The position numbers and the translations under genes are program-made. The notes beneath the pieces were generated by a model. The model had not been told where the DNA came from. It did no database searches and saw only the letters and a list, made by a program, of their open reading frames with translations. Below, piece by piece: positions 10,277 through 63,352 of a stretch of 64,000 bases of DNA (its first letter is position 1; the number at the start of each line of letters is the position of its first letter). This DNA comes from Mobula hypostoma (taxonomy: Eukaryota). The DNA is taken from the NCBI RefSeq assembly GCF_963921235.1, contig NC_086097.1, positions 175,400,001 through 175,464,000 of the forward strand. Reading direction: 5' to 3'.

Positions 10277-10314
10277 CAGTCCTGATGAAGGGTCTCGGGC
10301 CGAAGCGTCGACTG
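10277..10314 (+). ncRNA. Hammerhead motif, degenerate (GAAA changed to GAAG)
   Basis: cagtc ctgatga agggtctcgggcc gaagc gtc gactg in a PLE tail fragment. Confidence 0.55.
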
Positions 10315-10907
10315 TACTCTTTTCACTAGATGCTGCCTGGCCTGCCGAGTTCCTCCAGCATTTTGTGTGTGTTGCAGAATAAGGTGTTACAGTTACAGAG
10401 GAAGTTCAGAGCAGGCAGCAATAAGGTGCAAGGGCCTTAGTGAGGTCGCTTGTGAGGGTAAGTGTCCACCTTTTTGTACTAGGGAGCCATTCATTCACCT
10501 TATAACAGCAGGACAGAAGCTATCCTTGAGTCTGTGGTATGTGCTTTCAGGCTTCTGTATTGTCTGCCCAGTGGAAGAGAGGAGAAGAGACAATGTCTGC
10601 GTTTGTTTTCCTTGAATCAAGGAGATGGAGGGGGGAGCTGACTAAAAGGGGGAAATAGGGTAGATGCTGAAATACTTTTCCTCTTAATAGGAATGCCGAT
10701 GACTAGATTGCATAGGTTTAAGGCAAAGGTTTGCATGGGATTAGAGGATTATTTTTTTCTCTCTCAGATGGTTGAAGCCTAAAAGTCATGACCTGAGGAG
10801 GTGAAAGCAGAGACTCTCAGTGTTTGAGGAGTATGTTGATAAGCACTTGAAACACCCTGCATAGAGAGCTACAGCTCAGTAATGGGAAATAGGATTGGAA
10901 TAGATCT

Positions 10908-12175
10908 CAAACACAAGGAATTCTGCAGATGCTGGAAATTCAAGCAACACATATCAAAGTTGCTGGTGAACGCAGCAGGCCAGGCAGCATCTCGAGGAAG
11001 AGGTACAGTCGACGTTTCGGGCCGAGACCCTTCGTCAGGACTAACTGAAAGAAGAGCTAGTAAGAGATTTGAAAGTGGGAGGGGGAGGGGGAGGGGGAGA
11101 TCCAAAATGATAGGAGAAGTCAGGAGGGGGAGGGATGGAGCCAAGAGCTGGACAGGTGATTGGCAAAAGGGATATGAGAGGATCATGGGACAGGAGGCTT
11201 AGGGAGAAAGAAAGGGGGAGGGGGGGAAGCCCAGAGGATGGGCAAGGGGTATAGTGAGGGGGACAGAGGGAGAAAAAGGAGAGAGAGAGAAAGAATGTGT
11301 GTATATACTTAAATAACGGATGGGGTATGAGGGGGAGACGGGGCATTAGCAGAAGTTAGAGAAATCAATGTTCATGCCATTAGGTTGGAGGCTACCCAGA
11401 CGGAATATAAGGTGTTGTTCCTCCAACCTGAGTGTGGCTTCATCTTTACAGTAGAGGAGGCCGTGGATAGACATGTCAGAATGGGAATGGGATGTGGAAT
11501 TAAAACGTGTGGCCACTGGGAGATCCTGCTTTCTCTGGAGGACAGAGCATAGGTGTTCAGCAAAACGGTCTCCCAGTCTGCGTCGGATCTCGCCAATATA
11601 TAGAAGGCCACATCGGGAGCACCGGACGCAGTATATCACCCCAGCCGACTCACAGGTGAAGTGTCGCCTCACCTGGAAGGACTGTCTGGGGCCCTGAATG
11701 GTGGTAAGGGAGGAAGTGTAAGGGCATGTGTAGCACTTGTTCCGCTTACAAGGATAAGTGCCAGGAGGGAGATCAGTGGGGAGGGATGGGGGGGACAAAT
11801 GGACAAGGGAGTCGCGTAGGGAGCGATTCCTGCGGAAAGCGGTGGTGGGGGGGGAGGGAAAGATGTGGCATAGGGAGCGATCCCTGCAGAATCTGCTCTC
11901 AGGATGAGGCTTTTCATTCCAGGACGAGGGAGACGTCCTCCTTTTTTAAAGAAAGGGCTTCCCTTCCTCCACCATCAACTCTGCTCTCAAACGCATCTCC
12001 CCCATTTCATGCACATGCTCTCATTCCATCCTCCTGCCACCCCACTAGGGATAGGGTTCCCCTGGTCCTCACCTACCACCCCACCAGCCTCCGGGTCCAA
12101 CATATTATTCTCCGTAACTTCCGCCACTTCCAACGGGATCCCACCGCTAAGCACATCTTTCCCTCCCCCCCTCTT
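10908..12175 (-). mobile_element. Penelope-like element (GIY-YIG endonuclease, 3' terminus, inverted 5' segment)
   Basis: ORF 11346-11798 with CKRNKCYTC and GVIYCVRCSRCGLLYIGE..; 11880-12175 is upstream PLE coding sequence in the opposite orientation (RDRVPLVLTYHP). Confidence 0.9.
11006..11043 (-). ncRNA. Minimal type-I hammerhead ribozyme motif (PLE terminus)
   Basis: Minus strand UAGUC CUGACGA A GGGU-CUCG-GCCC GAAAC GUC GACUG: complete core, stem I, stem II and palindromic ACGU stem III. Confidence 0.8.
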
Positions 12176-12573
12176 GAATTCTTGAAAGATCATTACTAAT
12201 GCCTCCACAATCTCTTCAGTCACCTCTTTCAGAACCCTGGGGTGTACATCCTGTCATTAACCCTGTACTCTGCCTTTAAAATGAACCTTCCAAAGTGGGT
12301 CACTTCACACTTTTCTGGATGGACTGCCAGATCAAAGAACTTCAACCTGTAATTGCCAGTCCTTCATCGACACTGGGTCTAATCTAATTTGCCTCAGTCC
12401 TTCACACCTCCACTAGAGGTTCTGCAACAGTTCACAAAGGCAGAACGTCCCCCCTCTCCCCACCTTTAAAGGGGCAAATAGGGACAGGTGAAAATGCTGG
12501 CTTTCCTAGTAATGAACGTATCTTGAGTACATTTTTAAACTTTCTACTGGATACAATATGGAAGCATACTTAC

Positions 12574-12681
12574 CACAAAGAAATCATAACTGAACTGGTG
12601 TCGTAGCAAAAGGTGCTGAATGAAGTTCCTGCTCTGGTAATTTGGATCTCCCCAGGGCATCGACACACAGATGGGACAGAC
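12574..12681 (-). CDS. RNF125: RNF125-like E3 ligase, coding exon 5
   Basis: Acceptor cccttcctctgcag; 108 nt; [36 protein letters not shown] is the family-diagnostic second C2H2 finger; donor GTG|GTAAGT. Confidence 0.95.
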
Positions 12682-13261
12682 CTGCAGAGGAAGGGTGCCA
12701 AAGTTTAGCTGGGAAGAATGGCTTGTGGATAAGCATCTTCACTACAAAGCAATGGCTGGAGAATCTGTGAGCAAGGACAAACTTTGTCTGCAGGCTTCAT
12801 TCAACAGCAACCATTGAACTTGCTATTCATAGCAATTCTCTAATAAAGAGTTATGAGCTTGAAAATCCTCCATGTGATGTTCTGGTTTGTAGCCCTGATA
12901 GAAGCCCACTACCTTCTCAGAGCTACCATTGATAGGAAGCATAGAAGCATGAAGTCCCATATCACCAGTTTCAACAACACAAGAAATCCTGCAGATGCTG
13001 GAAATCTTGAGCATCACACATAAAACGCTCGAGGAACTCAGCAGGTCAGGAAACATCTATGGAGGGGAGTAAACAGTCGAAGTTTTGGGTGGAACCCTTC
13101 ATCAAGACAGGGAAAGAAGTGAGCAGAAGTCAGAATAAGGAGGAGGAGGGTGGGGGAAGAGTACAAGCTGGCAGGTGATTGGTGAGACCAGGTGAGGGGG
13201 TGGGGAGTGGGTTGAAGTAAGAAGTTGAGAGGTGATTGACTTGCTGAGTTCCTCCAGTATT

Positions 13262-13938
13262 CCGAGAGGAGAAGATGGCAGTGCGACGCAGCTCGCAGCG
13301 GCCACTCCAGTGAATGATATCTGTAATCTGTCAAGTAGGGTGCCATGCACAATCCTGATTTGATGGAGACAGACGTGAGAGCACGGAGGAACATCTGGTG
13401 AAACTTCTGAAATGCCTGCTTTGCTGCCGCTGCTACTATGTGATCCAGAATCTCCAGAGGGGAAGGCCCCAAGTCCTCAGCTTTGCTTGCTGCTTGGCAG
13501 CCGGGGTGGGGTCGAAGTGCACGGCAGAGGATGGTACTCGGTGCTTGGTGTCAGAGGGCTGGTCGGAGGCTCGAAGTTTTCGGACAGACTCAGAGTCCGC
13601 TGCGGTCAGGTGCTTCTAATGGTGCTGCATCGGCAAGTTTGCGGCGCTTTGGAAGTTCATGGCAGGGACAGTTTCTCCCTTCTACCGTCTGCATGAGATG
13701 ATGAGGCTATTGGGACTTTGAGACTTCTTTTTATCATGCCCATGGTTTCGCTTTACCAAATTACAGTATTGCTTTGCACTATTGTAACTATATGTTATAA
13801 TTATGTGGTTTTGTCAGTTTTAGTCTTGGTTTGTCCTGTGTTTTCTTGTGCTATCACTCTGGAAGAACATTGTATCATTTTTTAATGCATGCATTTCTAA
13901 ATGACAATAAACGAGGACTGAGTGTCCTCATAATCTAA
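13262..13938 (+). mobile_element. Non-autonomous SINE-like retroposon, family not identified
   Basis: CpG-rich head (aagatggcagtgcgacgcagc), T-rich body and aataaa tail; sits between a PLE tail fragment and LINE 3' sequence. Confidence 0.5.
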
Positions 13939-20659: not shown

Positions 20660-20957
20660 CTGCACAAGACGCCACAACTTCAGTACACTGCAATTCTGCC
20701 ATTTCTCAACATTATTTTAATTATTTGGAAAAAATCTCTAGCCACAGACTTACAGAATGGCCTATTAGCCCAGTCCTAGTTCTATGGAAGAGCGATCCAA
20801 GAGCAATCTCACTCCCTTGCTCTCTCCCCTGTAGAAGGGAATGAATCTGTCTCTGTGACAATCCCAGCCAATACATTCTGGACCATAATCACTTACTGCG
20901 CAAAACAAGTTAAATATAGACCAAGACACACAAAACAAACTCAGCAGATCAGGCAGC

Positions 20958-21858: not shown

Positions 21859-22647
21859 ACAGCATTTATGGAGGGAGATGAACTGTTGACATTTGATGTC
21901 CTGTTGTAGAGTCTCTGCCCAAAATGTTGACTGTTTCTCTCCATAGATGCTGCCTGACCTGCTGCGTTCCTCCATCATTTTATGTGTTGTTCAGGATTTC
22001 CAGCATCTGCTGAATTTCTTGTGTATCTAACTATAGACCGAAACTGAATCCTCCGGCACAGAGGAGGAGTTGAGGCCAGCGTAGATCAGCCATCATCCTA
22101 TTGAAGGGTGGGTCAGGCTTGAAGGCAAAGTTGCCTATTCCTGTTCCATTTCAAGTCATTGAGATGCATAAAACTAGGTGGAACCTACATTTTATAAGGA
22201 CCTAGAACAGTGCAGCACAGTAACAGGCCCTTTTGCCCGTGACATCTATACCAAGCATAATGCTAATTTAAACTACTTCCTTCTTTTACTGTGTGCTTGT
22301 GAATAGTGATATCCTCTAAACTTTGCTAACTTAGAATCAAAATCTGGGTTGGAAGATCCTGCCTGTTGTATTTATTTTTCTGTCATTATTTAGCAATGAA
22401 GATGCAGAAGTGCCTCAATTCCCTGCTGGACTGTTGCCCCATAAACTACTTTGAATACTCATTCTCTTATTCACTGGCACATCATGGCTGTTGAGTGAAC
22501 CAAACATACAGTAAAATACACTGCTACTAGTCAGCCGGGCTACACTGACAATGCCTTTGCCACCATGAAAAACAAGGGCCTCAAATATGTGGAGAACACA
22601 CACCACTTCCTGCAAGTCACATGTTGTACTGCCTTATGAGACACCAA

Positions 22648-22865
22648 TAGACAAGAAAATCTGCAGATGCTGGAAATCCAGGCAACACACTCAAAATGCT
22701 GGAGGAACTCAGCAGGCCAGGCTGCATCTAGGAAAAGAGTAAACAGTCAACATTTTGGGCTGAGACCCTTCATCAGTCCTGAAGAAACGTTGACAGTTTA
22801 CTCTTTTTCAATAGTTGCTGCCTAGTTTGCTGAGTTCCTGCAGCATTTTGTGTGTGTTGTTTTGC
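22648..22865. mobile_element. Palindromic PLE-terminus derivative (older copy)
   Basis: Two PLE tails in inverted orientation joined at degenerate hammerhead cores. Confidence 0.7.
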
Positions 22866-23024
22866 AAGTCAATGCATTTTACTTTTATAAAATTAAACTT
22901 GCATGAGTAAAATGGAATTTCATTTCACCCTGGGGTATATAACAAACTAATGTAACCTGAACACTAATTCCTCCAGCATTTTGTGTGTATTGTTAGGATA
23001 TACTGACGTTCCCTCAACATCCCT

Positions 23025-23061
23025 AGTCCTGACGAAGGGTCTCGGCCTGAAACGTCGACTG
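23025..23061 (+). ncRNA. Minimal hammerhead ribozyme motif
   Basis: agtc ctgacga agggtctcggcct gaaac gtc gactg in a short insertion flanked by ttccctca(a/t)cat. Confidence 0.75.
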
Positions 23062-29300: not shown

Positions 29301-31202
29301 AGCAGCTTGCCATGTATTGTTTGGGATGCGAACACATCCAGAAGATGCCAAGAGCACCACTTCTCCATCCCAGCAAATGGCCTGCATTGCCCTGGCATAG
29401 GATTCATGTGTATTTTGCCGGCCTATTCATGGATGCAAATTTTTTGATAGTAGTGGATGCAGCTACAAAGTGGCCAGAAGTGTTCCCGATAACCTCCACT
29501 ACAGCCTCACACACTGATGATCTGTTGAGAAGCCTCTTCACAAGGACTGGAGTTCCAGAACACTTAGTCAGTGATAATGGACCACAGTTTGTTGTCAAAT
29601 AGTTTCAGTCATTCCAGAAAGTGAATGGAATAAGACTTACTACATCTGCACTGTACCATCCAGCTATAATTAGCTTGGCAGAAAAGTTTGTGCAGAGTCT
29701 AAAGAACATACAGTGTGCAATGTCAGCAGAACACACTAGACTGACACTGAATCAGAAGCTCGCAAACTTCCTCTTTGCAGCACACTCCACAATCAACAGC
29801 TTCCCAGTGGCCAAACATTCCCATTCCTGTTCTGATGTGTCAGTCTTAGGCCTCCTCTTGTGCTAAGAGGAGGCCACCCTCAGGGTGGGGGAGCTGCACC
29901 TAATGTTCCAGCTGGGTAGCCTCCAACCTGACGTCATGAATATCAATTTCTCCTTCTGGTAAACTAATTCACCCCTCCCCTTCCTCTTTTCCCCTCTCTG
30001 ACCCTTTACCTCTTCTCACATGCCTATCTCCTTCCTCCATGGATCCTTTCTTCCTTCCCTTTCCCCTCTGGTCCACTCTCCTCTCCTATCATGTTCCTTC
30101 TTCTCCAGACTTTGACCTTTCCCTCTCACCTGGCTTCACCTATCACCTTCCAGCTAACTTCCTTCCCCTCCGTCCACCTTTTTATTCTGGCATCATTCCA
30201 CTTCCTTCTCAGTCCTGAAGAAGGGTCTCAGCACGAATTATTGACTGTTTATTCATTTCCATAGACGATGCCTAACCTGCTGAGTTCCTCCAGCATTTTT
30301 TGTGTGTTGCTTTGGATTTCAAGCATCTGCAGACGTTCTTGTGTTCATGATTTACTCACCAGCTATGCTACTCCTGGGTAGTCCCTTGCGCTCATGCTTG
30401 GATCTCCTCAAACCCAATCTCCGAAGGAGTATGCAGGACAAACAGCTGAGACAATTGAAAGCTCGTCAAACAAGGAGTTTTGGAGTTTCACTCCTGGACA
30501 TGGAGTCCTGGTGAGCGACTACAGAGATGGTCAAAAGTGGGTATTCAGAGAGATTAAGGACAGGACTGGACCACTCTCCAGCAGAGATTGCATTTGATGT
30601 CATCCGGGGATGACACATTGATCAGTTGAGGAGAGTAGAGTCAATTGTTAGAGAAGAATTGTGTTCGGAGCTGTCAGAACCACTTCCTATGGTCCCAGAG
30701 TCAGCTCCTACAACCACCACAGAGGAGGCTGCAATGCCTGAGATTGTTTCACTGCCACAAGCCTCACCTGCCAAGCAGATTGATCCCCTCCGCCTTGTCA
30801 GAAAATTTCTTATATAAGAGTAAGAAATCTTCTAGAGTGATTAAATCTTTAGGCCTGAACAGGATAATTTAAAATTTACTATGCTGTGGCTGTCTATATA
30901 CTGTCGTAGATGTATATATAAGATGACTAGAGAGCGATACCGTATATACTTGAGTGGAGATGCATTCTATATTGAGTTGGACTTTAGAGCTAAGCAGGGA
31001 GGGGTGTTGTGTATTTAATATTTGAGTAATATTGAGCATTCTTTGTTTACATAATTCATTCTGGGTTATGTAAGAAGTACATGAATAGCATGCGTAATTA
31101 CACCACCACATCATATGTGAGTGCCTCACTAAAAGATGTAGACCTGTATCCTGGTTGCCGTGTTTTTCCTTTGATCAGTTTATGGAGTTACTACACATAA
31201 CA
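26331..31202 (+). mobile_element. Gypsy LTR retrotransposon, full span but decayed
   Basis: 5' LTR about 26331-26493, PBS-like tggtgaggaag, gag (HLELKPLLIAEWFRMHK), RT CYLDD, RNase H ERPVAFASRS, integrase VSDNGPQF, PPT agcagggagggg, 3' LTR 31005-31202; TSD gagaa/gggaa; PLE fragment nested at about 29805-30350. Confidence 0.9.
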
Positions 31203-33246: not shown

Positions 33247-36200
33247 GTCTAACCCTTGCCAACACCCTGTTCTCAGCTCACAGCCAACAGAAGCGTCCAA
33301 AGCATCCGTTCTGGCCGGACCGCCCTGTTACAATCTAATTCTGATACAATCGGATGGAAGGTTCCGCCTTGATACAAAAGCCACAACTTCTGCGCCCAGA
33401 TGATAACCGACCTGCTGTTTCCAACATTTTAGGTGCTTATTTATTGAAAAAGCTGGAGGATCTCAGCGGGTCAGGTCAGTCAGCATCAGTGGGACCGCCA
33501 ATTTCCTTCCGCTAATGCTGCCTGACCCGCTGAGTTTCTCCAGCAGATTGTTCTTCAAGTTTATTGACACAGGCATAAATACGCAGGGTATAAATGCCAT
33601 GAAAATTAGCTTTATGCAGCAGCAGCGTAGACCTATATGAACTTAAATTACATAAATTACATGACAAAATAAGTAAAAATAAGCATGAATATAAATTGAG
33701 CCCAAGGTAGAATTCGAGTTTTTCATGCGGGTTTAAGAACTTAATGGCATTGGGGAAGAAACTGTTGTTGGACCTTGAGGTGTGGGTCTTCAGGCTCCTG
33801 AAGCAGCAGTGAGTCTGAAGCCTTCTATGCCTTGATGATTCAAGTGGTCCCTACAATAGAGTCTTTTAAGAGACTCTTAGATAGGTACATGGAGCTTACA
33901 AAAATAGAGGGCTATGCGGTAGGGAAATTCTAGCATGGGTTATATGGTCGGCATAACATTGTGGGCCGAAGGGCTTGTAATGTGCTGTAAATTTCTATGA
34001 TTCTATGAATGGCAAGTTGATGCTGGAGTGTGGCAACTCTCTGCGAGCTGTTTTCATAACATCTTTTTTAATCATTCCACCTGTCTCAATCTAAATTCGA
34101 TGAGTTTAAGAATTACTAACAATATTCCTTTGATCTGTTTACAGGTCGAGTGGTTGTAAGAACTCCTGGGGTGACTTAACCAACAGTTGCCTGCACTGCC
34201 CATCCTTTGTAACCGCAACGCGTTATTATGCATCCTGTTATTGCTCAGCAATGAACCAATAGCAATGAGATATGACCTGAGTCTTGCCTGTCCTTGTCTC
34301 TGCCGCGAAGGCGGAACCAGTAAGTCCTGTGAGGCCACGGATTTTGATTCAATCTCCAGAACCGCCGATGTTGTCACCTTCGCTCAATGGCTGGAAAACA
34401 ATTTGCGATGGGATCTACAAACAATCTGCTGGAGGAAATCAGCGGGTTGAGCAGCATCTGTAGAAGGAAAGGAATCATTCACATTTCAGGCCGAAACCCT
34501 GCATTGGGACTGCAATCTCTTGTCTTTCCTCGGGATGAGATCTGTAGACCGTTACATTGTCCACATATTTACGAGAATTTTTCCTCTCAGCACTGCATGT
34601 TAGTTTAAAATTGGGAGCAACAAAAATCATTTTTTTAAATGCTGTGAGAGCATTTATCTTCCTCCAGTTTATCAGGCAGTGTGTCCCAGGTTCCAAGCAT
34701 CCCTCTGGCTGAGAAAGATCCACCTCAGTTCTCCATTCAGCCACTGAGCGAAGACGGAATGCACCCTGTCCCTCAGCCCGGCAGTCAAAGTCAAAGTTCA
34801 ATTTATTATCGGATTACACACACGTCACCACATACAACCCTGAGGTTCTTCTTCCACTCAAAGGCAATGGTGTTCCCGTACAAGGGCAAAATGCAGCCAG
34901 TCACCACATTTACATTCTCTACCATACATCTATAAAAATTTGTCAATGTTTTGATGACATGCCGAATCTCCACAGGCTCCTGAGGACTCGTGCTTTCTTT
35001 GCAATTACATTTATATGATGAGTCCAGGACAGGGCATCTGAGATAGTAACGCCCAGGAATTTAAAGTTAGTGACCCTCTCCACTTCTGATTCTCCGATGC
35101 TTACTGGATCATGGACCTCTGGTTTCCCTCTCCTGAAGTCCACAATCAGTTCCTTGTTATTGATGGTATTGAGTGAGAGGTTCTTATATTACACCACTCA
35201 GCCAAATTTTCCCCTTGACCGCAGACATCACCACAAACGTCGCCACAAACAAGAATGAGTTTTCCAAGCTGGGAGCTTCATCTTGATCAAACAAATGAGA
35301 TAACCAGGAACATTATCACTGGGAGAAAACAACTGCTGGAGATCTGGGTGGGTTACTTACCTTTCTGACATATTTTTTAAAAGAAAATTCAGATGTTTAA
35401 ACCAGAATGAGAAAACTGGATAACAGCTTGTTATGGCAACTGCTCTGTCCAAACTGTGACCACAGCACAGTCCATCACAGAAACCAGTTTCCCCTCTATG
35501 GATTCTTTCTATAATCTCTGCCATCAGGCAGAAGATAGAAGGACTTGAAAGCACGGACTCAAAGCCAGTTTCTATACTGCTGTTGAATGGACCTCTTGAA
35601 GGTAAAAAGTGAACTCGTGATCTCCCAACTAATCTCCTCATGTCCATGTACTTTATTTGTCTACGTGAACTGCTCCTTTACTCCACAGGTGAAACACTAT
35701 TGTTGCACTGCAAAACTGCCTTCTGTTTTTCTTGCTACCTCAATGTACTTATGTATGGCATGATCTGTATGGAAGTTTTCACTGTATCTTGGTACATAGG
35801 ACAATAACGAACAAATTGGATTATAACAGGGTGGGTCTGGTCAGAGCATCTGCTTCTCTGAGACTCTGGTCAAAACTGATATCCAGCACAGAAATGATCC
35901 TTTCAGTACACCCAGGCCATGCCCAAGTTCTGCTTCTGGATTATGCAACACTGGGTAACAACTTCTCCAATGGGATTCGACCACTGAGCATATCTCCCTG
36001 CCGGTAACAAAGAGGACAGAAATCAGAATAAAAGGGAAAGTGGAGGAACATAACCTGGCAGGTGATATCTGAGTCCAGGGGAGGGGGAAGGTGAGTAGGT
36101 AGGTGGGAGGGGGTTTGAAAGTGAATGATGTAAGAAACTAGGTTATAGAAACATAGAAAACCTACACCACAATACAGGCCCTTCAGCCCATAATGCTATG

Positions 36201-43884: not shown

Positions 43885-44240
43885 AAACAACAGGAATTCT
43901 GCAGATGCTGGAAATTCAAGCAACATACATCAAAGTTGCTGGTGAACGCAGCAGGCCAGGCAGCATCTATAGGAAGAGGCGCAGTCGACGTTTCAGGCCA
44001 AGACCCTTCGTCAGGACTAACTGAAGGAAGAGTGAGTAAGGGATTTGAAAGCTGGAGGGGGAGGGGGAGATGCAAAATGATAGGAGAAGACAGGAGGGGG
44101 AGGGATAGAGCCGAGAGCTGGACAGGTGATAGGCAAAAGGGGATACGAGAGGATCATGGGACAGGAGGTCCGGGAAGAAAGATGGGGGGGGGGTGACCCA
44201 GAGGATGGGCAAGAGGTATATTCAGAGGGACAGAGGGAGA
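43885..44240 (-). mobile_element. PLE 3' terminus with hammerhead motif (43982-44018)
   Basis: Near-identical to 10908-11275; minus strand agtc ctgacga agggtcttggcct gaaac gtc gactg. Confidence 0.85.
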
Positions 44241-45297: not shown

Positions 45298-46157
45298 TTA
45301 TCGATTAGTTTTGAAGGGATAATATAATTGAATGCTGAGCTGCAGGCAATAAAGAGCATCCTGATGTATGCAGCTGTGCTGTGCAGATGTTCCAGAGTTT
45401 AGTGAAGACCCAATGAGGTGGCATCTACTGTGGACCTGTTGTGCTGTTAGTCAAATTGATGTGGACCCAATTCGGTTCTCAGGCAGGAGTTAATATATTT
45501 CATCACCTACCTCTCAAAACACTTCATCACTGTGGACATAAGTGCTACTGGGTGATAGTCACTGAGGCAAGTTACCATGTTCTTCTTAGGCATCGGTATA
45601 ATCAAAGCCTGCTTAAAGCAGGTGGCTATCTCAGACTGCTGAACTGAGAGCTTAAGGATCTCAATGAACACTCCAGCCAGTCGATTAGCACAGGTCTTTA
45701 GTACTCAACCAGGTACCCCATCTGAGCTGGGTGATTTCGGTGGGTTCACCGCTCTCACATTGCCTCAGAGACTGAAACCACAGGATCATCAGGGGTTGTG
45801 GGAGGTTTGTGATGGTTCCTCCATATTTTGCTGGTCAAAACTAAAACAGAAGACATTGAGCTCATCTGGAAGCAAAGACTTGAGTTGCTTGATTTTACTT
45901 TGTAAGAGATGATAGCATTCAGGCCCCTGCCATAGTTGTTGAGCATTCTTCATTGATCCAGGCTTAGTCCAGGATTGCCTCTTTGCCTGTGAGATGGCTT
46001 TCTGGAGATTGTACCCGGACCTCTTGTAACTTTCTTGGTCACCAGACTAGAATGCCTCTGATCTGGCCCTCAGCAAATTGTGGATTTCATGGTTCATCCA
46101 GGGCTTCTGTTCAGGAAGTCTCTAAATTATGTTGTGGGGACACACTTGTCTAAGACT

Positions 46158-47454
46158 CACAACACGCTGGAGGAACTCAGCAGGTTGGGTAGCATCTGTG
46201 GAAAAGATCAGTCGACGTTTCGGGCCGGAACCCTTCGTCAGGACTGTAGAGGGAAGGGGCAGAGGCCCTATAAATAAGGTGGGGGGGGGTGGGAAGGAGA
46301 AGGCTGGAAGGTTCCAGGTGAAAAACCAGTAAGGGGAAAGATAAAGGGGTGGGGGAAGGGAGGCAGGGAGGTGATAGGCAGGAAAGGTGAAGAAAGAATA
46401 GGGGAAAACACAATGGGTAGTAGAAGGAGGCGGAACCATGAGGGAGGTGGTAGGCAGCTGGGGGAGGGGGCAGAGTGACATAGGGATAGGGGATGGGAGG
46501 GGGAGGGAATTACCGGAAGTTGGAGAATTCTATGTTCATACTAAGGGGCTGGAGACTACCTAGACGGTATATGAGGTGTTGCTCCTCCAACCTGAGTTTA
46601 GCCTCATCATGGCAGTAGAGGAGGCCATGTATGGACATATCTGAATGGGAGTGGGAAGCAGAGTTGAAGTGGGTGGCTACTGGGAGATCCTGTCTGTTTT
46701 GGCGGATGGAGCGGAGGTGCTCGACGAAGCGGTCCCCCAGTCTGCATCGGGTTTCACCGATGTAGAGGAGGCCGCACCGGGAGCACCGGATGCAATAGAT
46801 GACCCCAACAGACGCACAAGTGAAGTGTTGCCTCACTTGGAAGGACTGTTTAGGGCCCTGAATGGTGGCAAGAGAGGAGGTGTAGGGACAGGTGTAGCAC
46901 TTGCGCTTACAGGGATAAGTGCCAGGTGGGAGATCCGTGGGGAGGGACGTGTGGACCAGGGAGTCGCGGAGGGACCGATCCCTGCGGAAGGCGGAGAGGG
47001 GTGGAGAGGGAAAGATGTGCTTAGTGGTGGGGTCCTGTTGAAGGTGGTGGAAGTTGTGGAGGATAATGCGCTGGATCCGGAGGCTGGTGGGGTGGTAGGT
47101 GAGGACAAGGGGAACTCTGTCCCTGTTGTGGTGGCGGAAGGATGGGGTGAGAGCCGAAGTGTGGGAAATGGAGGAGATGCGGGTGAGGGCATCATTGATG
47201 ACAGCAGAAGGGAATCAACAATGCTTAAAGAGAGAGAATATTTGAGATGTCCTGGAACGGAAAACCTCATCCTCGGAGCAGATGCGGCGGAGACGGAGGA
47301 ACTGGGAATAGGGAATGGCATTTTTGCATGTGGCTGGGTGGGAAGAGGTATAGTTGAGGTAGTTATGAGAGTCAGTGGGCTTGTTTAAGATGTCAGTGGA
47401 CAGTCTGTCTCCAGAGATGCTTTGACCTCAGCATCTGCAGATTATTTTGTGTTT
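46158..47454 (-). mobile_element. Penelope-like element (GIY-YIG) with short inverted terminal piece
   Basis: ORF 46510-46836 GVIYCIRCSRCGLLYIGET; 14-bp TSD acttgtcta(a/g)gact (46144-46157, 47455-47468). Confidence 0.9.
46209..46246 (-). ncRNA. Minimal hammerhead ribozyme motif (best copy)
   Basis: CAGUC CUGACGA A GGGU-UCCG-GCCC GAAAC GUC GACUG with perfect 5-bp stem I. Confidence 0.82.
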
Positions 47455-47895
47455 ACTTGTCTAGGACTGTTTTTTATAAAGTCCATTCTAACTATGTGTA
47501 TTCATTCAGATCCATAGATAAGTCCTCGAACATGGCCCAGTCCACCAACTCAAAGCAATCCCGTAGCCAATCCTGTGCCTCCCGTGACTATCTCTTTGAT
47601 GTCCTAATTTCTTCAGCCTTGCTCTTTAGCTTCTGCCTGTATGCAGGTAGGAGGACAGCCAGCAGATCAGATTTCCCAAAGTGCGTTCTGGGCATGGAAT
47701 GGTGGGCATGCCTTACCTTCGTGAGCAGTGGTCAGGCGTGTTGGGACCTCTGGTGCTACAGGTTATATGCTGATGGTAATTGGGCAGGAGGCCTGGTTGA
47801 AATCCCTGACTATGATTTGAAACGCGTAGGGGTAGGCTGTTTCTTGTTTGGTGATGGCAGCATGCTGTATCTCAAGTGCCTGACTACAGTTGGCA

Positions 47896-48092
47896 ACACA
47901 AAATAATCTGCAGATGCTGGGGTCAAAGCAACACTCACAACAGGCTGGAGGAACTCAGCAGGTTGGGCAGCATCCGTGGAAAAGATCGGTCGACGTTTCG
48001 GGCCGGATGAAGGGTTCCCGCCTGAAACGTCAACCGATCTTTTCCACGGATGCTGCCTGACCTGCTGAGTTCCTCCAGCGTGTTGTGAGTGT
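47896..48092. mobile_element. Palindromic mini-element made of two inverted PLE termini
   Basis: Inverted arms meet at partial hammerheads; 15-bp TSD tga(c/t)tacagttggca (47881-47895, 48093-48107). Confidence 0.85.
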
Positions 48093-50431
48093 TGATTACA
48101 GTTGGCAGATGGTGGTATTTAAACTACGGTCAGGATCACAGAGGAGAACTCCCTTGGTAAATAGAATGGTTGACATATTATTGTTCAGTGTTCAAAGTCA
48201 GGAGAACCAAACTACAACAAAACTGCCACATCGGAGCACCACAGAGAGTTTATCATGAAACACACACCCCCTCCTTTTGCTTTGATGAATCAGCAGTTCA
48301 GTCTATCCTGTGTACTGAGAAGCCTTCGGGTCTAATCACCGTATCTGGCGTACTCTGAGTAAGTCATGTCTCGGTAAAATATGGAACACAACAATTTCTC
48401 AAGCAACCTCCTTATGATGAACTAAACAGCTACAGTATGTTTAAAAGAATAGCAAGAAATTGGCAAAAATGCTGATTGATGAAGGCAGGCAAAAATATGA
48501 AACCCCTTTAAAAGTTGAAAACAACAAAACCTGACCCATGCTAACCCTCTGCACTGCATAATTACTTGGGACAAACTAATATGTTGATTTTTTGATTCAT
48601 TTCTGTCTGAAATATCATAGAATTAAATTCTACTATGTCGATCAACTGCTTACACATATAATGCTATGGTTTCAATTGAATCCTTGTCAACCTCTGGTTC
48701 ACCAAATGTTTAGAAAATGTGTTCAAAACACAAAGTGTTATTGTTTTCTAATTTTTCACAGTATGTGGTTAGTTTTCCTTAGTTTTAGGGATTTACTAGT
48801 TATTGTAAACCCCAAATTCCCTCGGTGATCCACCCAATCCCAAACACGCCTCACTCAGAGATCTATTCCTGATGCCATTACCATCTTCTTTAAGGAAGTG
48901 ATCCATCATCCAAAACTCCGGTCTCTTTTGGGAATCTACACTGTTCCTCAGATTCTCCCAAACCCATTTCACCCATGTTCCCATTCCTTACATTCTCATT
49001 TTTAGGATATGAACCTCATCCAATTTCTGATCCCTAGTACCAGCTATACAGACTCTGCCAGAGTCATCCTCTACTCCAATTCCCTAAATCTTCCAGGAAT
49101 GGACCCCTGTAAAGCAGGAGATTGTGGAGTGAGTTGGAGACAGTTCATTGTGGACTTTATGTGCCAGGTTTAAAAGACGATCAGGGCCTGTTAGGACTTC
49201 TCTGCAGAACAGGCGATTGCTTAGGTTATTAGCAACTTAGCAATGGCCAAGAGAAAGAGAACGTAAGTGAACCGGCCATTGTGGGAGCAGTCATTGTTGG
49301 AGTATGTCAGGCTTTGGCTCAATAAGCTTTGACAAACCCAGGTGCAGGCTAGAACTTAAGCTTATAAAGTGCAGGCAGGATGGTTGTTCATGTGATGGAA
49401 TGCTTCTCCTGTGAGATGTGGGATTTCAGGGTATCTGACAGTCTCCTTGATGACTACATCTGCAGGAAGTACATCCAACTGCAGCTCCTAACTGTCAAGG
49501 TCAAGGAATTGGAGCCGGAGCTGGATCTGGATATACTTAAGACTATACAGAAGGCGGAAAAAATCATTGACTAGACTTTTACTGAGGTTATCACACCCAG
49601 AGCGCAGGCTTCAGGTGATAGATGTGTGACCACCAGGAGAAATCAGGGAAGTAAGCAGTTAGTGCAGGGTTCCTCCGTGGCCATTCCCCTCAGTAATAGG
49701 TATGTCCATTTGGATACTGCAGGTGGGAATGACCTAGCAGAGCACAGCAGCAGCAGTCAGGCCAGTGGTACTGTGGCTTGGTCTGAGGCTCAGTGGGGAC
49801 AGGGTAAAGTCAGGCAAAGTGACAGAAGTAGGAGACTCAATAGTGAGGGAGATGGACAACAGGTTCTGTGGCCATGAAAAAGATGACAGGATGGTATGTT
49901 GTCTCCCAGGTGCTAGAGTACAGGATGTCTCAGAGCGATTGCAGAAGATTCTCAAAAGGGAGGGTGAGCAACCAAAGGTCATGGTGCACATAAGACGATA
50001 AGAGCATAGTCAGGGCAGGAATAGGAAGATAGTACAGGTGAATGAGTGGCTGAGGAAGTGGGCAGTGAGCAAGGTTTCAGATGTCTGGATCACTGGATCC
50101 CTTCTGGGGAAGGTACTGCATGGTCTGTATAAAAAGGATGGGGTTACACCTGAACCCAGGGGTGTCCAATATCCTTGTAGGCAGGTTTGTGAGAGCTGTT
50201 GGGGAGGGTTTAAACCAGTTTGGCAGGAGTATGGGAACTGGAGTGATAGGGCTGAGGATGGGGCAGTTAGTGTACAAGTCAATGCAGTGTGTAGTGAGAT
50301 GGTGAGGAAAGACAGACAGATGATAGGGCAAAATTGTAATCAGTGGGATGATTTGAAGTGTAAAATGGGGGCAAAATCAACAACGGTGACAAATACAGGA
50401 CTGAAGGCATTATATTTGAATATATACAGTA

Positions 50432-52899: not shown

Positions 52900-53039
52900 G
52901 TAACACACTGGAGGAACTCAGCAGATCGGGCAGCATCCATGGAAATGAACAGTCAACGTTTCCACAGATGCTGCCCGACCTGCTGAGTTCCTCCAGCGTG
53001 TTGCTTTGACCCCAGCATCTGCAGAGTATTTTTTGTTTA
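52900..53039. mobile_element. Palindromic PLE-terminus mini-element
   Basis: Inverted PLE tails with the central hammerhead largely deleted; TSD ctgacactgt (52890-52899, 53040-53049). Confidence 0.8.
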
Positions 53040-56000: not shown

Positions 56001-56454
56001 CCACAGGGGTACTCTGCACTGGCTCCTTAACTTCTTTCCTCTTCCTGACTGTCACCCAGTTTCCTTTATCCTGCAGCTTAGGTGTAACTACCTCTCTCTA
56101 TGTCCTATACCCTTCAGCCTCTAAATGATCTGGAGTTCATTCAGATCCAGCTCCAACTCTAACGTGGATTGTTAGAAGCTGAAGCTGGATGCACTTCTTC
56201 TAAGTTGTAGCCTTCATGTGCCTTCCCACATTCCGCAAGAGGAGCATTCAACTATCCTGTCTGGCATCTCTACTATCCTAGCTGAGCAGATATAAAGAGG
56301 GGAAGGAAAAAAATTCTTAACCTAATGGTTTGCTTTCTCTGATTGAAGCCTGTTTTCATGGAAGCCTCGAAGAGCTAAAGCCTCAAGATCACCACTCTAT
56401 CTCTGTCTACTTAGATGACAGCCACTGTGATGATGACAAGCAACACATTTCGTT

Positions 56455-56491
56455 AGTCCTGACGAAGGGTCTCGGCCTGAAACGTCGACTG
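56455..56491 (+). ncRNA. Minimal hammerhead motif in a 148-bp PLE-tail insertion
   Basis: agtc ctgacga agggtctcggcct gaaac gtc gactg; insertion 56439-56586 with TSD tgtgatgatgaca. Confidence 0.75.
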
Positions 56492-59110: not shown

Positions 59111-61047
59111 AGTCTCTCTGTCTCCGTCTGTTTGCAACTGCCACTTGTTGAACGTTCAAAGTAAATTGATTATCAGAGTACCTACATGTTACCCATAACT
59201 ACCTAGGGAATTATTTCCTTGCAGACATTTACAATAAAAAGAAACACAATAGTTTTATGAAAGACTATACATATACAAAGACTGACAAACAACCGATGTG
59301 AAAAAAATACAAACTGCAAATATAAGTAACACGACGACATGGTTGTAATGAGTCTGTACGTCATCGAATCAGTTCAGAGTAGTGGTGATTGAAATTATCC
59401 ATGCTGGTCCAGGAGGCTGATGTTTGGAGGGTAATAACTATACCTGACCCTGGTTGTGTGGGACCATAAGGCATGGGAGCAGAATTAGGCCTTTCAGCCC
59501 ATTGAGTCTGCTCCATCATGGCTGACCACAGATCCCACTCAACCCCATGCACCTGCCTTCTCGCCATATGCTTTGATGTCCTGACCGATCAGGAAGCGAT
59601 CAACTACCGCCTTAAATATACCCACAGACTTGGCCTCCACCAGTCTGTGGCAGAGCATTCCACAGATTCACTACTCTCTAGCTAAAAAAAAAATCCTCCT
59701 TACCTCTGTTCTAAAAGGTTACCCCTCAATTTTGAAGTTGTGGATATCCTCACCATAGGAAACATCCTCTCCACATCCACCCTAAATAGCCCTTTCAATA
59801 TTTGGTAGGTTTCTATGAGATCCCCCTGTATTCTTCTAAATTCCAGTGAGTACAGGCCCAAAGTTGCCAAATGCTCCACATACATTAACCCCTTCATCCC
59901 CAGAATCATCCTCGTGCACCTCCTCTGGATTCTCTCCAATGACAACATATCCCTTCTGAGAAATGGGGCCCAAAACAGTTGACAATACTCCAAGTGTGGC
60001 CTGACTAGTCTCTTATAAAGCTTCAGCATCATCTCCTTGCTTTTATATTCTAATCCGCTTGAACTAAATGCCAACATTGCATTTGCCTTTTTTACCACAG
60101 ACTCAACCTATAAATTAACCTACTGGGAGTCTTGCACGAGGACTTCTAAGTCCCTCTGCACTTCTGATATGTGAACCTTCTCCCCATTTAGATAATAGTC
60201 TGCACTATTGTTCCTTTTACCAAATGCATTGTTATACATTTCCCAACACTGTATTCCATTTGCCACTTTTTTTAGCCCATTCTTCCAATTTGTCTAAGTC
60301 CTGCTGCAAATGCATTGTTTCCTCAGCACTACCTACCCCTCCACCTATCATTGTATCATCCGCAAACTTTGCCACAAAGTCATCAATTCCATTATCCAAA
60401 TCATTAACAAACGATGTAAAAAGTAGTGGTCCCAACACTGATTCCTGAGGAACACCACTAGTCACTGGCAGCCAACGAGAAAAGGCCCCCTTTATTCCCA
60501 CTCGCTGCCTCCTGCCTGTCAGCCATTCCTCTATACATGCCAGTATCTTAGGATTTTACCTTGTTAGGCAGCCAGATGCGTGGCACCTTATCAAATGCCT
60601 TCTGAAAGTCTAAGTAAGTGACATCTTTGTCCACCCTGCTTGTAACTTCCTCAAAGAACTCTAACAGATTTGTCAGGCAAGATTTCCATTGACAGAAACC
60701 ATGCTGACTTTGACTTATTTTATCAATTAGCTCCAAATACCTTGAAACCTCATCCTTAATAAAAGACTCCAACATTTCCCAACCACTGAGGTTAGGCTAA
60801 TTGGCATATAATTTCCTTTCTTTTGCATTTCTCCCTTCTTAAAGAGTGAAGGGACATTTGAAATCTTCCAGTCCTCTGGGACCATGCCAGAATCAAGCGA
60901 TTGTTGAAAGATCATGATCAACACACCCATTATCTCTTCAGCAACCTCTCTCAGGACTCTGGGATGCAGTTCATCTGGCCCAGGTGACTTATCCACCTTA
61001 AGACCATTGAGGAACTCAGCAGGTCGGGCAGCATCCGTGGAAAAGAT

Positions 61048-61085
61048 CGGTCGACGTTTCAGGCCGGAACCTTTCATCAGGACTG
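61048..61085 (-). ncRNA. Minimal hammerhead motif with covarying stem II
   Basis: CAGUC CUGAUGA A AGGU-UCCG-GCCU GAAAC GUC GACCG; A-U replaces the G-C closing pair of stem II. Confidence 0.72.
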
Positions 61086-62411
61086 TAGGGGGAAGGGGCA
61101 GAGGCCCTATAAAGAAGGTGGGGGGAGAGTGGGAAGGAGAAGGCTGGTAGGTTCCAAGTGAAAAACCAGTCAGGGGAAAGATAAAGGGGTGGAGGAAGGG
61201 AGGCAGGGAGGTGATAGGCAGGAAAGGTGAAGAAGGAATAGGGGAAAACACAATGGGTAGTAGAAGGAGGCGGAACCGAGAGGGAGGTGGTAGGTAGCTG
61301 GGGGAGGGGGCAGAGTGACATAGGGATAGGGGATGGGAGGGGGAGGGAATTACCGGAAGTTGGAGAATTCTATGTTCATACCAAGGGGCTGGAGACTACC
61401 TAGACGGTATATGAGGTGTTGCTCCTCCAACCTGAGTTTAGCCTCATCATGGCAGTAGAGGAGGCCATGTATGGACATATCTGAATGGGAACGTGAAGCA
61501 GAGTTGAAGTGGGTGGCTACTGGGAGATCCTGTCTGTTGTGGCGGATGGAGTGGAGGTGCTCGATGAAGCGGTCCCCCAATCTGCGTTGGGTTTCACCGA
61601 TGTTGAGGAGACCGCATCAGGAGCACCGGATGCAATAGATGACTCCAACAGACTCACAAGTGAAGTGTTGCCTCACTTGGAAGGACTGTCTGGGGCCCTG
61701 AATGGTGGCAAGAGAGGAGGTGTAGGGACAGGTGTAGCACTTGCGCTTACAGGGATAAGTGCCAGGTGGGAGATCCGTGGGGAGAGACGTGTGGACCAGG
61801 GAGTCACGGAGGGACCGATCCCTGTGGAAGGCGGAGAGAGGTGGAGAGGGAAAGATGTGCTTAGTGGTGGGGTCCTGTTGAAGGTGGCAGAAGTTGCGGA
61901 GGATAGTGTGCCGAATCTGGAGGCTGGTGGGATGGTAGGTGAAGACAAGGGGAACTCTGTCCCTGTTGTGGTGGCGGAAGGATGGGGTGAGAGCCGAAGT
62001 GTGGGAAATGGAGGAGATGCGGGTGAGGGCATCATTGATGACAGCAGAAGGGAAACCACGATTCCTAAAGAAAGAGGACATTTGAGATGTCCTGGAACGG
62101 AAAGCCTCATCCTGGGAGCAGATGCGGCGGAGACAGAGGAACTGGGAATAGGGAATGGCAATTTTGCATGTGGCTGGACGGGAAGAGGTATAGTTGAGGT
62201 AGTTATGAGAGTCAGTGGGCTTGTAGAAGATGTCCGTGGACAGTTTGTCTCCAGAGATGGAGACCGAGAGATTGAGAAAGGGGAGAGAAGTGTCTGAGAT
62301 GGACCAAGTGAATTTGAGGGCTGGGTGGAATTTAGAAGTAAAGACGATGAAATTGATGAGCTCAGCAAGAAGTAAAGTCGATGAAATTAGGGCCTCTGCC
62401 CCTTCCCCCTA

Positions 62412-62449
62412 CAGTCCTGACGAAGGGTTCCGGCCCGAAATGTCGACCG
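62412..62449 (+). ncRNA. Minimal hammerhead motif
   Basis: cagtc ctgacga agggttccggccc gaaat gtc gaccg. Confidence 0.68.
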
Positions 62450-62867
62450 ATCTTTCTAACGGATGCTGCCCGACCTGCTGAGTTCCTCCAGCGTGTGGTG
62501 AGTGTTGCTTTGACCCCAGCATCTGCAGATTATTTTGTGTTTAAGACCATTGAGTCTGCCTAGCACTTATTACTTAGTAATAGCAATAGTATTCACTCCT
62601 GCTCCCTGACGCTCACAGACCTCTGACACACTGCAAGGGTCTTCCAGAGTGAAGACTGATGCAAAGTACTTATTAAGTTCATCTACTATTCTTTTGTTTC
62701 CCCATTACTACCTTAGCAGCATCATTTTTCAGTGGTCCAATATCAACTGTCACCTCCCTTTTACTCTTTATATAACTGAAAAATCTTTTGATATCCTCCT
62801 TCATATTATTGGCTATTTTGCCCTCATATATAATCTTTTCCCTTCACTCAGCTTTTTTTTTGTTAAC

Positions 62868-63352
62868 ACAAAATACATATGTCCATACATGGCCTCCTCT
62901 ACTGCCATGATGAGGCTAAACTCAGGTTGGAGGAGTAACACCTCATATACCGTCTAGGTAGTCTCCAACCCCTTGGTATGAACATAGAATTCTCCAACTT
63001 CCGGTAATTTCCTCCCCCTCCCTTCCCCTATCCCTATGTCACTCTGCCCCCTCCCCCAGCTGCCTATCACCTCCCTCATGGTTCCGCCTCCTTCTACTAC
63101 CCATTGCGTTTTCCCCTATTCCTTCTTTACCTATCCCCTCCCTGCCTCCCCTCCCCACCCCTTTATCTTTCCCCTTACTGGTTTTTCATCTGGAACCTTC
63201 CAGCCTTCTCCTTCCCATCCTCCCCCACCTTCTTTATAGGGCCTCTTCCCCTTCCCTCTTCAGTCCTGATGAAAGGTTCCAGTCCGAAACGTTGACTGAT
63301 CGTTTCCATGGATGCTGCCCGACCTGCTGAGTTCCTCCAGCTTGTTGTGTGT
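62868..63352 (+). mobile_element. PLE 3' fragment with hammerhead motif (63261-63298)
   Basis: GIY-YIG C-terminal remnant plus UTR; cagtc ctgatga aaggttccagtcc gaaac gtt gactg. Confidence 0.82.

Follow-up and report, generated by a model that had tools for sequence, protein, structure and literature searches.

Minimal hammerhead ribozymes (min-HHRs) have been described in the pLTRs of metazoan Penelope-like elements (PLEs), including the fish elements Xena, Poseidon and Neptune (Cervera and De la Pena 2014, PMC4209133). In the accessible part of supplement file 2 of that study, no cartilaginous fish appears among the chordate rows and no shark is named. The function of the PLE hammerhead has been called unclear (Craig et al. 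2021, PMC8557442). In the Poseidon element PAc of Anolis carolinensis, two reverse-transcription start sites bound the tail, and insertion in vitro does not require the hammerhead, which is assisted by protein (Frangieh et al. 2024, PMC11167929).

The stretch analysed here (64,000 nucleotides of Mobula hypostoma, hereafter the window) carries a motif of this already described kind, in truncated, decaying insertions. As in the published min-HHRs (PMC4209133), the core is type I with an extra base between 9 and 10.1 and a G10.1-C11.1 pair, the 15.2-16.2 segment is palindromic and lacks loop 3, helix I has 4-5 bp and the 5' flank is pyrimidine-rich; the palindromic ACGU helix III of the first-pass annotation agrees with those examples. 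Likewise, most copies are solo and truncated, and they occur in large numbers, with several families per genome. Helix II has only 4 bp, whereas many published examples have 5-8, and the variation among copies is mostly CpG decay, unlike the covariation described there for other genomes.

As in PAc (PMC11167929), the hammerhead is followed by two putative reverse-transcription start sites bounding a tail of 30-40 nt, uncut RNA is the source of insertion and both target strands would be extended. Unlike PAc, which belongs to the Poseidon clade, the window protein carries a Cx3-4CxxC linker as in Neptune/Nematis, both ends lie at or near UGUGUU-like words instead of an AC-rich loop, and in many cases 1-4 nt are common to the proximal end and the target. 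The C-terminal GIY-YIG domain with CCHH and the zinc-finger-like linker are those of Neptune-clade EN+ PLEs (PMC8557442; Arkhipova et al. 2013, PMC3846280), and strong 5' truncation, an inverted 5' copy, an optional tail on one inverted pLTR and TSDs are also shared with EN+ PLEs, the TSDs being 12-15 nt here and 8-10 nt in rotifer examples (PMC8557442; PMC3846280). Head-to-head junctions have been explained by self-priming on an antisense template (PMC3846280), whereas the window fits two-strand target priming equally well or better. Non-LTR retrozymes (PMC7229834; bioRxiv 10.64898/2026.07.22.740005) are likewise PLE-related with a type-I hammerhead, but their defining feature is a tandem array in which every unit has its own hammerhead, and none was seen in the window.

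Hammerhead copies in the window

All nine positions listed in the first-pass annotation do carry the motif, five on the plus and four on the minus strand (Table 1); the minus-strand copies at 11006, 43982, 46209 and 61048 start, as RNA, at 11043, 44019, 46246 and 61085. Six of them are fully intact: their core is complete, helix II has 4 bp, four or more of the five helix I pairs remain and the ACGU palindrome is retained. The strict core pattern matches seven times in the window, against a mean of 0.16 and a maximum of 2 in 200 first-order Markov simulations. An HMM built from the nine copies gives 36 matches at E<=10, including decayed and tail-only pieces and some probable noise, and an Rfam scan of the window returned no hammerhead family among its three matches at E<=1.

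The type-I order of the core (CUGANGA, GAAA, NUH) is present in eight of the nine copies, the extra unpaired A between 9 and 10.1 in all, and the ACGU palindrome (15-16 segment, without loop 3) in seven. The closing pair 10.1-11.1 is G-C in four copies, G-U in three, A-U in one and A.C in one. The repeated motif comprises 38 bases, and helix III is not closed in it.

Table 1. Hammerhead copies, coding remnants and insertions in the window, ordered by position.
Feature	Position	Strand	Remarks
min-HHR, older lineage	10277..10314	+	A15.1>G; solo insertion about 10206-10373, 13-nt TSD
Insertion B, family 1	10909..12174		Full tail, HHR, UTR, endonuclease frame (11346-11945, -); upstream RT piece 11891-12174 inverted; no TSD found
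min-HHR, family 1 (loop II CUCG)	11006..11043	-	Intact; G10.1-C11.1
Older copy, decayed HHR (13110-), full tail	12977..13262		Short inverted arm 13237-13262
Older two-arm insertion, decayed HHR	21860..22024		Plus arm runs from +2 through the full tail; minus arm from about +25 to +58
Older head-to-head two-arm insertion	22651..22859		Joined inside HHR; no TSD found
min-HHR, family 1	23024..23061	+	Intact; G10.1.U11.1; starts solo insertion 23021-23123 (12-nt TSD, ends at proximal 3' end, antisense in host intron)
Older copy	29818..30345	+	Endonuclease 3' end, UTR, decayed HHR (30210), full tail
Older decayed HHR	34417..34512	-	Partial tail; begins at helix I
Older endonuclease 3' end	37032..37695	+	UTR, 5' half of HHR (37637); 3' half deleted
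min-HHR, family 1	43982..44019	-	Intact; within 5'-truncated copy 43885-44241 with full tail
Insertion C	46152..47454	both	14-nt TSD (1 mismatch); minus arm: 5'-truncated ORF, UTR, HHR, ends about +93; plus arm 47418-47454: only 38-nt tail, inverted
min-HHR, family 2 (loop II UCCG)	46209..46246	-	Intact
Open 234-aa frame	46510..47214	-	RT thumb end, Cx3CxxC linker, GIY-YIG endonuclease with CCHH
Head-to-head two-arm insertion, family 2	47895..48094		Minus arm runs from +18 through the full tail, plus arm from +5 to +99; 15-nt TSD (1 mismatch)
Head-to-head two-arm insertion, family 2	52901..53038		Plus arm runs from about +43 through the full tail, minus arm from +26 to about +88; 13-nt TSD (1 mismatch)
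min-HHR, family 1	56454..56491	+	Intact; insertion 56439-56586: 13-nt TSD, 11-nt inverted second arm
Insertion A	61009..62542	both	14-nt TSD; inside a LINE RT fragment, presumably CR1-like; minus arm: 5'-truncated RT-thumb + endonuclease (in-frame stop), UTR, HHR, ends at +77; plus arm 62388-62542: -23 to full tail
min-HHR, family 2	61048..61085	-	Intact; A10.1-U11.1; 1 mismatch in helix I
min-HHR, family 2	62412..62449	+	C15.2>U; inside inverted arm of insertion A
min-HHR, family 2	63261..63298	+	Helix II damaged (A.C mismatch at 10.1-11.1); insertion 62863-63352: 13-nt TSD, endonuclease 3' end, 11-nt inverted tail arm

Host element and lineages

The identification of the motifs as minimal type-I hammerheads in the terminal repeat of PLEs is supported. 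Their location at PLE termini, as first annotated, is borne out by GIY-YIG/RT 3' ends directly upstream of 11043-, 46246-, 61085- and 63261+, the hammerheads sitting 263-302 nt downstream of the endonuclease stop. The 234-aa frame matches Pfam GIY-YIG with E 3e-4 and 21.3 bits, just under the 22.6 cut-off; its homologues extend into an RT carrying YIDD, and the nearest proteins are those of the rays Hypanus and Mobula (82-83%), followed by sharks (56-66%) and by coral and echinoderm (41-49%). The CX2-5CxxC linker and the CCHH motif that mark the Neptune clade are present, and Nematis has them too. The element is judged to be of the Neptune type from these motifs and from a host range that we assume to favour Neptune over Nematis, Neptune and Poseidon being the groups reported for vertebrates. 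At related invertebrate-type PLE loci, a sense min-HHR lies 84-153 nt after the ORF in 14 of the 56 with enough downstream DNA, compared with 1/56 for antisense and 2/79 for upstream motifs. All copies in the window are 5'-truncated, with no full-length element and no direct tandem pLTR pair, and hence the source RNA is not seen in it.

The link drawn in the first-pass annotation between loop II and tail holds in that CUCG and UCCG loops follow different tails, and different upstream UTRs as well, but it does not divide the copies into two lineages only: 10277 has a CUCG loop but a tail of a third, older type, which brings the lineages to at least three. The two recently active lineages do exist as two young ones, with older ones beside them. 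Copies of family 1 are 94-98% identical to one another, and in family 2 insertions A and C agree at about 95%. Between the two families, 35 of the 38 hammerhead bases are the same, helix I and ACGU being identical; their endonucleases are 79% identical, and their UTRs align at 55% identity, against 54% when shuffled.

Insertion structures

TSDs of 12-15 nt were found in 7 of the 16 insertions tested (null 14/1000). Two 3' ends occur about 35-40 nt apart, delimiting the PLE 'tail', and inverted second arms are seen; one distal end is paired with one proximal end in all six two-arm insertions with TSDs and in 9/10 overall. A tail structure pairing GAUGCUG with CAGCAUC, together with a proximal-end hairpin, gave no covariation on nine full-tail copies, with the register partly off by one column, and is not supported.

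Copy decay and selection

The variation of the closing pair, which had been read as covariation, is mostly CpG decay, since 14 of the 17 differences in young-copy hammerheads fall in CpG columns and the single A-U is offset by an uncompensated A.C. The covariation check on window copies found none, RNAalifold on 16 of them giving a near-zero consensus in the wrong register. The expected excess conservation of the core over the tail did not appear among copies either (non-CpG differences in family 2, 3/121 vs 8/234; in old copies, 23/176 vs 22/212). Against eight invertebrate-type loci, both partners differ in every one of the nine pairs (cells paired: 0/500 shuffles), but these loci had been chosen by a descriptor requiring 3 bp per helix.

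In a public sequencing run (X1), whose values were summed over contigs with weighting by depth at an 80% threshold and whose source organism may not be this species, G12, C15.2, G16.2, C17 and G1.1 change at 10.5-13.8%, and loop II at 10.6 and 12.3%. Since the rate of decay at these critical core CpGs, 10-14%, resembles that of loop II, single copies look unselected. The two sides of CpG pairs differ, with 16.6% for N7 C>U vs 7.2% for G8>A, and 37.2% for C11.1>U vs 13.5% for G12>A. This C>U excess is found only at N7 and 11.1, positions where a hammerhead tolerates that substitution, which points to selection acting on source elements.

Cut site, 5' ends and folding

Every window copy spanning the cut site derives from uncut RNA. 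Of the 15 hand-listed arm 5' ends within -60..+60, seven fall between -1 and +6, on the 5' side of helix I at its edge (scan p 0.001), and none coincides with the cut site at +34. This list, made by hand, had 10277 at -51, its end being later placed near -70 by the TSD; in a conservative set, 4/12 ends lie at the helix I edge (p 0.23), and 5'-end clustering at the hammerhead edge is not established. Among the sequencing-contig joints listed, 5/15 and 5/12 have one side at 11038-11046, and six single- or few-contig joints lie at 11007-11015, around the cut site, so that some cDNA may derive from cut RNA.

The monomer is predicted to fold into an inactive rod (-12.9 kcal/mol) rather than an active-like form (-8.9 kcal/mol), and dispersed monomers are thus predicted to misfold. 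For the dimer, a double hammerhead is predicted at -16.7 kcal/mol vs -34.1 kcal/mol for a misfolded dimer, these being nearest-neighbour energies that ignore the tertiary core.

At the hammerhead edge, a possible 3' splice acceptor (pyrimidine tract and YAG at +1..+3), likened to the intron reported in D. virilis (PMC4209133), was considered as a weak lead; against it, the whole UTR is pyrimidine-rich and the AG is missing from the invertebrate-type loci. No junction at +4 occurs among the top loose ends listed for the contigs of X9, a run presumed to be of RNA.

Proposed mechanism and alternatives

The best overall explanation, in which we place considerable confidence, is that min-HHRs reside in the pLTR of several Neptune-type EN+ PLE families, heavily amplified in the ray genome, and act through the following proposed steps. 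The element protein would nick both target strands, and reverse transcription, initiated at two internal sites 3' of the hammerhead, would yield 5'-truncated, often head-to-head insertions. Uncut RNA would be the template for cDNAs that cross the cut site, and insertion would thus not need cleavage. In a single copy, the G8 region of the core would pair with CGUC at the cut site, giving the inactive rod, and helix III could not close; cutting would therefore need two copies, through the ACGU palindrome, and probably also the element's own protein as a chaperone, by analogy with the anole element. Cutting would matter only in source-element RNA, most likely in trimming tandem or read-through transcripts, which would account for a motif that persists from lineage to lineage while its dispersed copies decay neutrally.

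It is more tentatively suggested, and we are rather doubtful of it, that twin-priming follows fixed roles: a dimeric PLE protein would prime one strand at the distal RNA site and the other 35-40 nt farther upstream, at the proximal site; the trailing enzyme would either stop at the first cDNA (tail-only arm) or displace it (overlapping arms), and the cDNA would tend to end at the 5' edge of helix I, marking an RNA 5' end or a cDNA snap-back.

It seems unlikely that the hammerhead shape is kept for a non-catalytic role in the element's RNA or cDNA (a protein-binding site, the edge of a promoter or an RNA 5' end, or a hairpin whose snap-back ends cDNA synthesis) and never cuts in vivo. Such a role would accommodate the arm ends and contig joints at the helix I edge, the unimpaired insertion in vitro of anole hammerhead mutants, with no RNA-seq ends at the cut (PMC11167929), and the success of Naiad elements without canonical hammerheads (PMC8557442); however, the clustering drops away in the conservative set, the core bases and NUH are all kept from the ray to the invertebrate-type loci while helix I has changed completely, and the anole motif cleaves with protein present, with C3/G8 rescue (PMC11167929).

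Much less probable still is that the short hammerhead-plus-tail units form a non-autonomous family of their own (SINE-like or a non-LTR retrozyme), mobilised by the PLE and replicating via self-cleaved circles. Although the copies at 23024, 56454, 21896 and 34512 begin at the hammerhead edge and measure about 100-135 nt, and retrozymes are reported as PLE derivatives, including in one chondrichthyan (bioRxiv 10.64898/2026.07.22.740005), there are no head-to-tail unit arrays in the copy map or among the 20 largest of at least 60 repeat families, and no unit is permuted at the cut site. Moreover, 5' ends run continuously into UTR, endonuclease and RT, and the short copies are 94-98% identical to ORF-linked ones, without a private diagnostic tail. 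Least credible of all is a domestication of dispersed copies as ribozymes acting on host transcripts. The shared helix I and ACGU would permit cross-family dimerisation, copies lie in or near a minus-strand host RING-finger gene (exons at about 33.1, 24.1, 14.9 and 12.6 kb; the gene's last exon was sought and not found), the intact sense copy 11043- is 1.5 kb 3' of the last exon found, and the intact 46246- and 44019- lie on one strand, 2.2 kb apart. Nevertheless, core CpGs decay as fast as loop II, there is no strand bias, the sole intact copy between mapped exons (23024) is antisense, and monomers are predicted to misfold.

Relevance and further observations

The motif adds a cartilaginous-fish example to the class described in 2014. 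In so abundant a family, the insertions suffice to read reverse-transcription start and stop points and source-element selection from the genome, and the asymmetry of CpG pairs provides a simple means of separating neutral copy decay from selection on source elements. Twin-priming, if true, would explain head-to-head PLE inversions without an antisense template, and, if the copy number is very large, both twin-priming and in-vivo hammerhead cutting could be read from end counts. As a minor observation, an Rfam match to mir-1791 (47954-48068, 44.8 bits, gathering score 75) corresponds to a head-to-head PLE insertion and not to a microRNA.

Hammerhead motifs and the element that carries them

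The 38-nt motif of the minimal type-I hammerhead (min-HHR) is present at all nine positions listed in the first-pass annotation, five times on the plus and four times on the minus strand, and is intact in six of them (in our numbering, the first base of helix I is +1 and the predicted cut falls after +33). A strict core pattern matches the window seven times, against a mean of 0.16 and a maximum of 2 in 200 Markov simulations, and an HMM built from the nine copies gives 36 matches at E<=10 in the window, decayed, tail-only and probably spurious ones included. An Rfam scan of the window returned no hammerhead match. The motif is like the min-HHR of Penelope-like elements (PLEs), as summarised by the consensus in the supplement of PMC4209133, in every testable feature, and by all of these, judged from its sequence, it is a PLE min-HHR.

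Features of the window, with hammerhead copies named by the start of the RNA
Feature	Position	Strand	Remarks
Hammerhead copy	10277	plus	lesion A15.1>G
Hammerhead copy	11043	minus	family 1 (loop II CUCG)
Hammerhead copy	23024	plus	family 1
Hammerhead copy	44019	minus	family 1
Hammerhead copy	46246	minus	family 2 (loop II UCCG)
Hammerhead copy	56454	plus	family 1
Hammerhead copy	61085	minus	family 2
Hammerhead copy	62412	plus	family 2; lesion C15.2>U
Hammerhead copy	63261	plus	family 2; A.C mismatch at helix II closing pair
Arms of 48.0 kb insertion	47895..48094		family 2
Arms of 52.9 kb insertion	52901..53038		family 2
Host ubiquitin-ligase exons (RING/C2HC/C2H2)	33122-33005, 24142-23990, ~14985-14870, 12680-12575	minus	
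Tandem array	8965-9732		48-bp, ~15 units, up to 97% identical; several frames open
Broken transposase-like frames	16929-18934	minus	DUF4371, E 1.5e-11
LINE RT 3' end	39672-40969	plus	RVT_1, E 2e-23
Integrase core fragment	29252-29602	plus	rve, E 3e-7
Frame with protease-like motif	2548-3132	minus	no Pfam match

A pyrimidine-rich UTR and the 3' end of an ORF lie 5' of hammerheads 11043, 46246, 61085 and 63261, the UTR between ORF and hammerhead measuring 302 nt in family 1 and 263 nt in family 2. This ORF end encodes a Cx3-4CxxC linker followed by a GIY-YIG endonuclease with CCHH (Pfam GIY-YIG, E 3e-4, slightly below the cut-off). A search of longer proteins gave 29 matches at E<=1e-10 among 927 candidates, with identities of 71-83% in rays, 58-65% in sharks, and 30-48% in coral, echinoderm and unnamed proteins. 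The host is therefore very probably a ray, and the element, given the linker and endonuclease motifs and the extension of the longer homologues into RT, is a PLE that bears an endonuclease, with motifs of the Neptune/Nematis type; we call it Neptune on the reported vertebrate distribution, rather than on a tree. Several ray gene models among the protein matches seem to include the PLE frame. A predicted protein named from Stegostoma (P0005) reads through the UTR, and its C-terminal peptide fits a translated hammerhead (back-translation by eye), which suggests that sharks carry the same hammerhead at the same place.

All PLE copies in the window are 5'-truncated, the longest retaining ~1.25 kb, and with bounds set by hand they amount to 21 stretches and ~7.9 kb, or 12% of the window. 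In the public sequencing run X1, 78,937 contigs align to one 176-nt stretch, mostly 90-99% alike, a figure that is not a copy number and that shows the family to be very large. Our literature search found no description of this ray family, which repeat libraries (Repbase, Dfam) or supplements may list; a 2026 preprint (bioRxiv 10.64898/2026.07.22.740005) reports retrozymes in one chondrichthyan.

Two families and their decay

It had been proposed that the two loop II variants track different downstream tails, and they do so, their UTRs differing too. The endonucleases of the two families are 79% identical (414/522), and the UTRs show 55% aligned identity versus 54% when shuffled; despite this shuffled-level similarity, hammerheads 11043 and 46246 are identical at 35 of 38 bases. 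Both proposed subfamilies are real, but a third tail type occurs on 10277 and on the decayed copies 13110, 21896, 22777, 30210 and 34512. The suggestion of recent activity holds in relative terms, as indicated by 94-98% identity within family 1, 95% identity between the family 2 insertions A (61009..62542) and C (46152..47454), and clean target-site duplications (TSDs), although no active source element is seen in the window.

The variation among hammerhead copies is mostly CpG decay, and it bears a slight mark of selection acting on the source elements. The hammerheads of the ten young copies depart from their family majority 17 times, 14 of them in CpG columns. The core had been expected to be conserved above the tail, which is not the case among window copies at non-CpG sites, where core and tail differences number 3/121 versus 8/234 in family 2 and 23/176 versus 22/212 in old copies; with no core excess, the conservation test of the first-pass annotation therefore fails within the window.

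The percentages from X1 and from a further public run, X9, are depth-weighted contig sums, and the source organisms may be other than this species. In X1, another letter reaches at least 4% of depth at 12 hammerhead positions, ten of them CpG and two the loop II family difference. The catalytically required G12, C15.2, G16.2, C17 and G1.1 are altered at 10.5-13.8%, and loop II at 10.6 and 12.3%; because the required core CpGs change as often as loop II, single copies appear to decay neutrally. The C and G sides of the CpG are similar in loop II, 15.2/16.2 and 17/1.1, matching the neutral expectation, and change is lopsided at N7/G8 (16.6 versus 7.2%) and C11.1/G12 (37.2 versus 13.5%), N7 and C11.1 being the two sites where C>U preserves a hammerhead. 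X9 points in the same direction (10.3 versus 1.6 and 59.1 versus 6.4, respectively), with 17/1.1 also uneven (4.2 versus 8.9). We infer that U7 and G10.1.U11.1 were acceptable in the source elements, whereas loss of G8 or G12 was not.

Insertion anatomy

The 3' ends fall into two groups, distal at +130 to +136 and proximal mostly at +88 to +102 (outliers +77 and +58), with a UGUGUU-like word at or near most of them. TSDs of 12-15 nt were found in 7 of 16 tested insertions, against 14 of 1000 random flank pairs, and 10277 yielded its TSD once the left bound was shifted. Ten insertions consist of two head-to-head arms, and a distal end is paired with a proximal one in all six that have clear TSDs (A, C, 63261, 48.0 kb, 52.9 kb and 56454; p 1/64 at even odds, by simple arithmetic), as well as in three of the four older ones, the exception being the 33.5 kb pair. 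Inverted terminal repeats and an optional tail are already described for PLEs in PMC8557442 and PMC3846280, and in Poseidon, the element of Anolis carolinensis, two RT start sites are reported in PMC11167929 to flank the tail.

The inverted arm of insertion C is the 38-nt tail only and adjoins the body, with ~2 nt missing. The arms overlap in insertion A and at 48.0, 52.9 and 56.4 kb, and strand displacement or a second template is therefore required. Twin priming with fixed roles and cDNA run-off at the hammerhead edge is a tentative model that we lean against. At the arm junction of insertion A (62340-62388), an 18-20 nt RT piece is duplicated about a short filler, which suggests template slippage. 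A PLE tail fragment also occurs at 20938-20963, with the 21.9 kb insertion on the other side of the repeats at 20953-21863; these comprise an inverted repeat of 136 nt, 90% identical (20953-21088 with 21728-21863), and, between its arms, tandem repeats of 25 bp (21058-21229, overlapping the first arm).

Cleavage

Copies spanning +33/+34 necessarily derive from uncut (or religated) RNA. Fifteen arm 5' ends, listed by hand, lie no more than 60 nt from +1; none is at +34, and seven are at -1..+6 (p 0.001; p 0.23 when only a conservative set of 12 is used). The contig loose ends that rank highest map to the distal end (10908-10909), to the hammerhead 5' edge (11040-11042, where homology between the families also stops, a confounder) and to 11005. 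Among 464 contig loose ends, the top 12 do not include the cut site; against this, six of the contig joints listed fall at 11007-11015.

A rod, in which core bases of the G8 region pair with the cut-site strand, is the best predicted fold of the six intact monomers (for 11043, -12.9 versus -8.9 kcal/mol for the active-like fold; for 61085 the gap is only 0.4), and for the dimer a misfolded form is predicted to be more stable than the double hammerhead. This agrees with the Schistosoma min-HHR, reported in PMC4209133 as inactive as a monomer and of low activity as a dimer, and with the anole element, for which PMC11167929 describes protein-assisted cleavage. The hammerhead would more likely than not cleave in source-element RNA with the help of protein; solo copies are unlikely to be active.

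Related loci on metagenome contigs

From 80 of 390 confirmed matches, a set of 79 loci with 38-48% protein identity was obtained, 67 of which were judged by eye to reach the endonuclease end, 56 of these having at least 250 nt downstream. A sense min-HHR lies 84-153 nt past the ORF in 14 of the 56 (antisense control 1/56, upstream control 2/79), and these 14 loci collapse to ~8 distinct families. In all 14 the extra base is present and the 15.2-16.2 segment measures 2 nt, although the descriptor permitted 1-6 nt. When eight loci and four window copies were aligned, two-sided changes appeared at all nine helix I/II pairs, a result that is partly circular because the selection of loci demanded pairing. 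One locus (L021) presents a canonical-looking type-I hammerhead antisense to the PLE ORF, at ~316 nt in the reverse complement of the downstream stretch, its helix III segment being a 6-nt palindrome.

Other features of the window

The host ubiquitin-ligase gene, whose last exon was not found in the window, is one that we take to belong to the RNF114/125/138/166 family; its exon 24142-23990 matches RNF125 structures (E 6e-4). The transposase-like frames presumably represent an old hAT-type DNA transposon, and the integrase core fragment and the protease-like frame are probably decayed pieces of LTR elements. Many more LINE RT fragments, which we assume to be of CR1 type, lie at 44.5, 52, 54, 57-60 and 63 kb, and several of them serve as PLE insertion targets.
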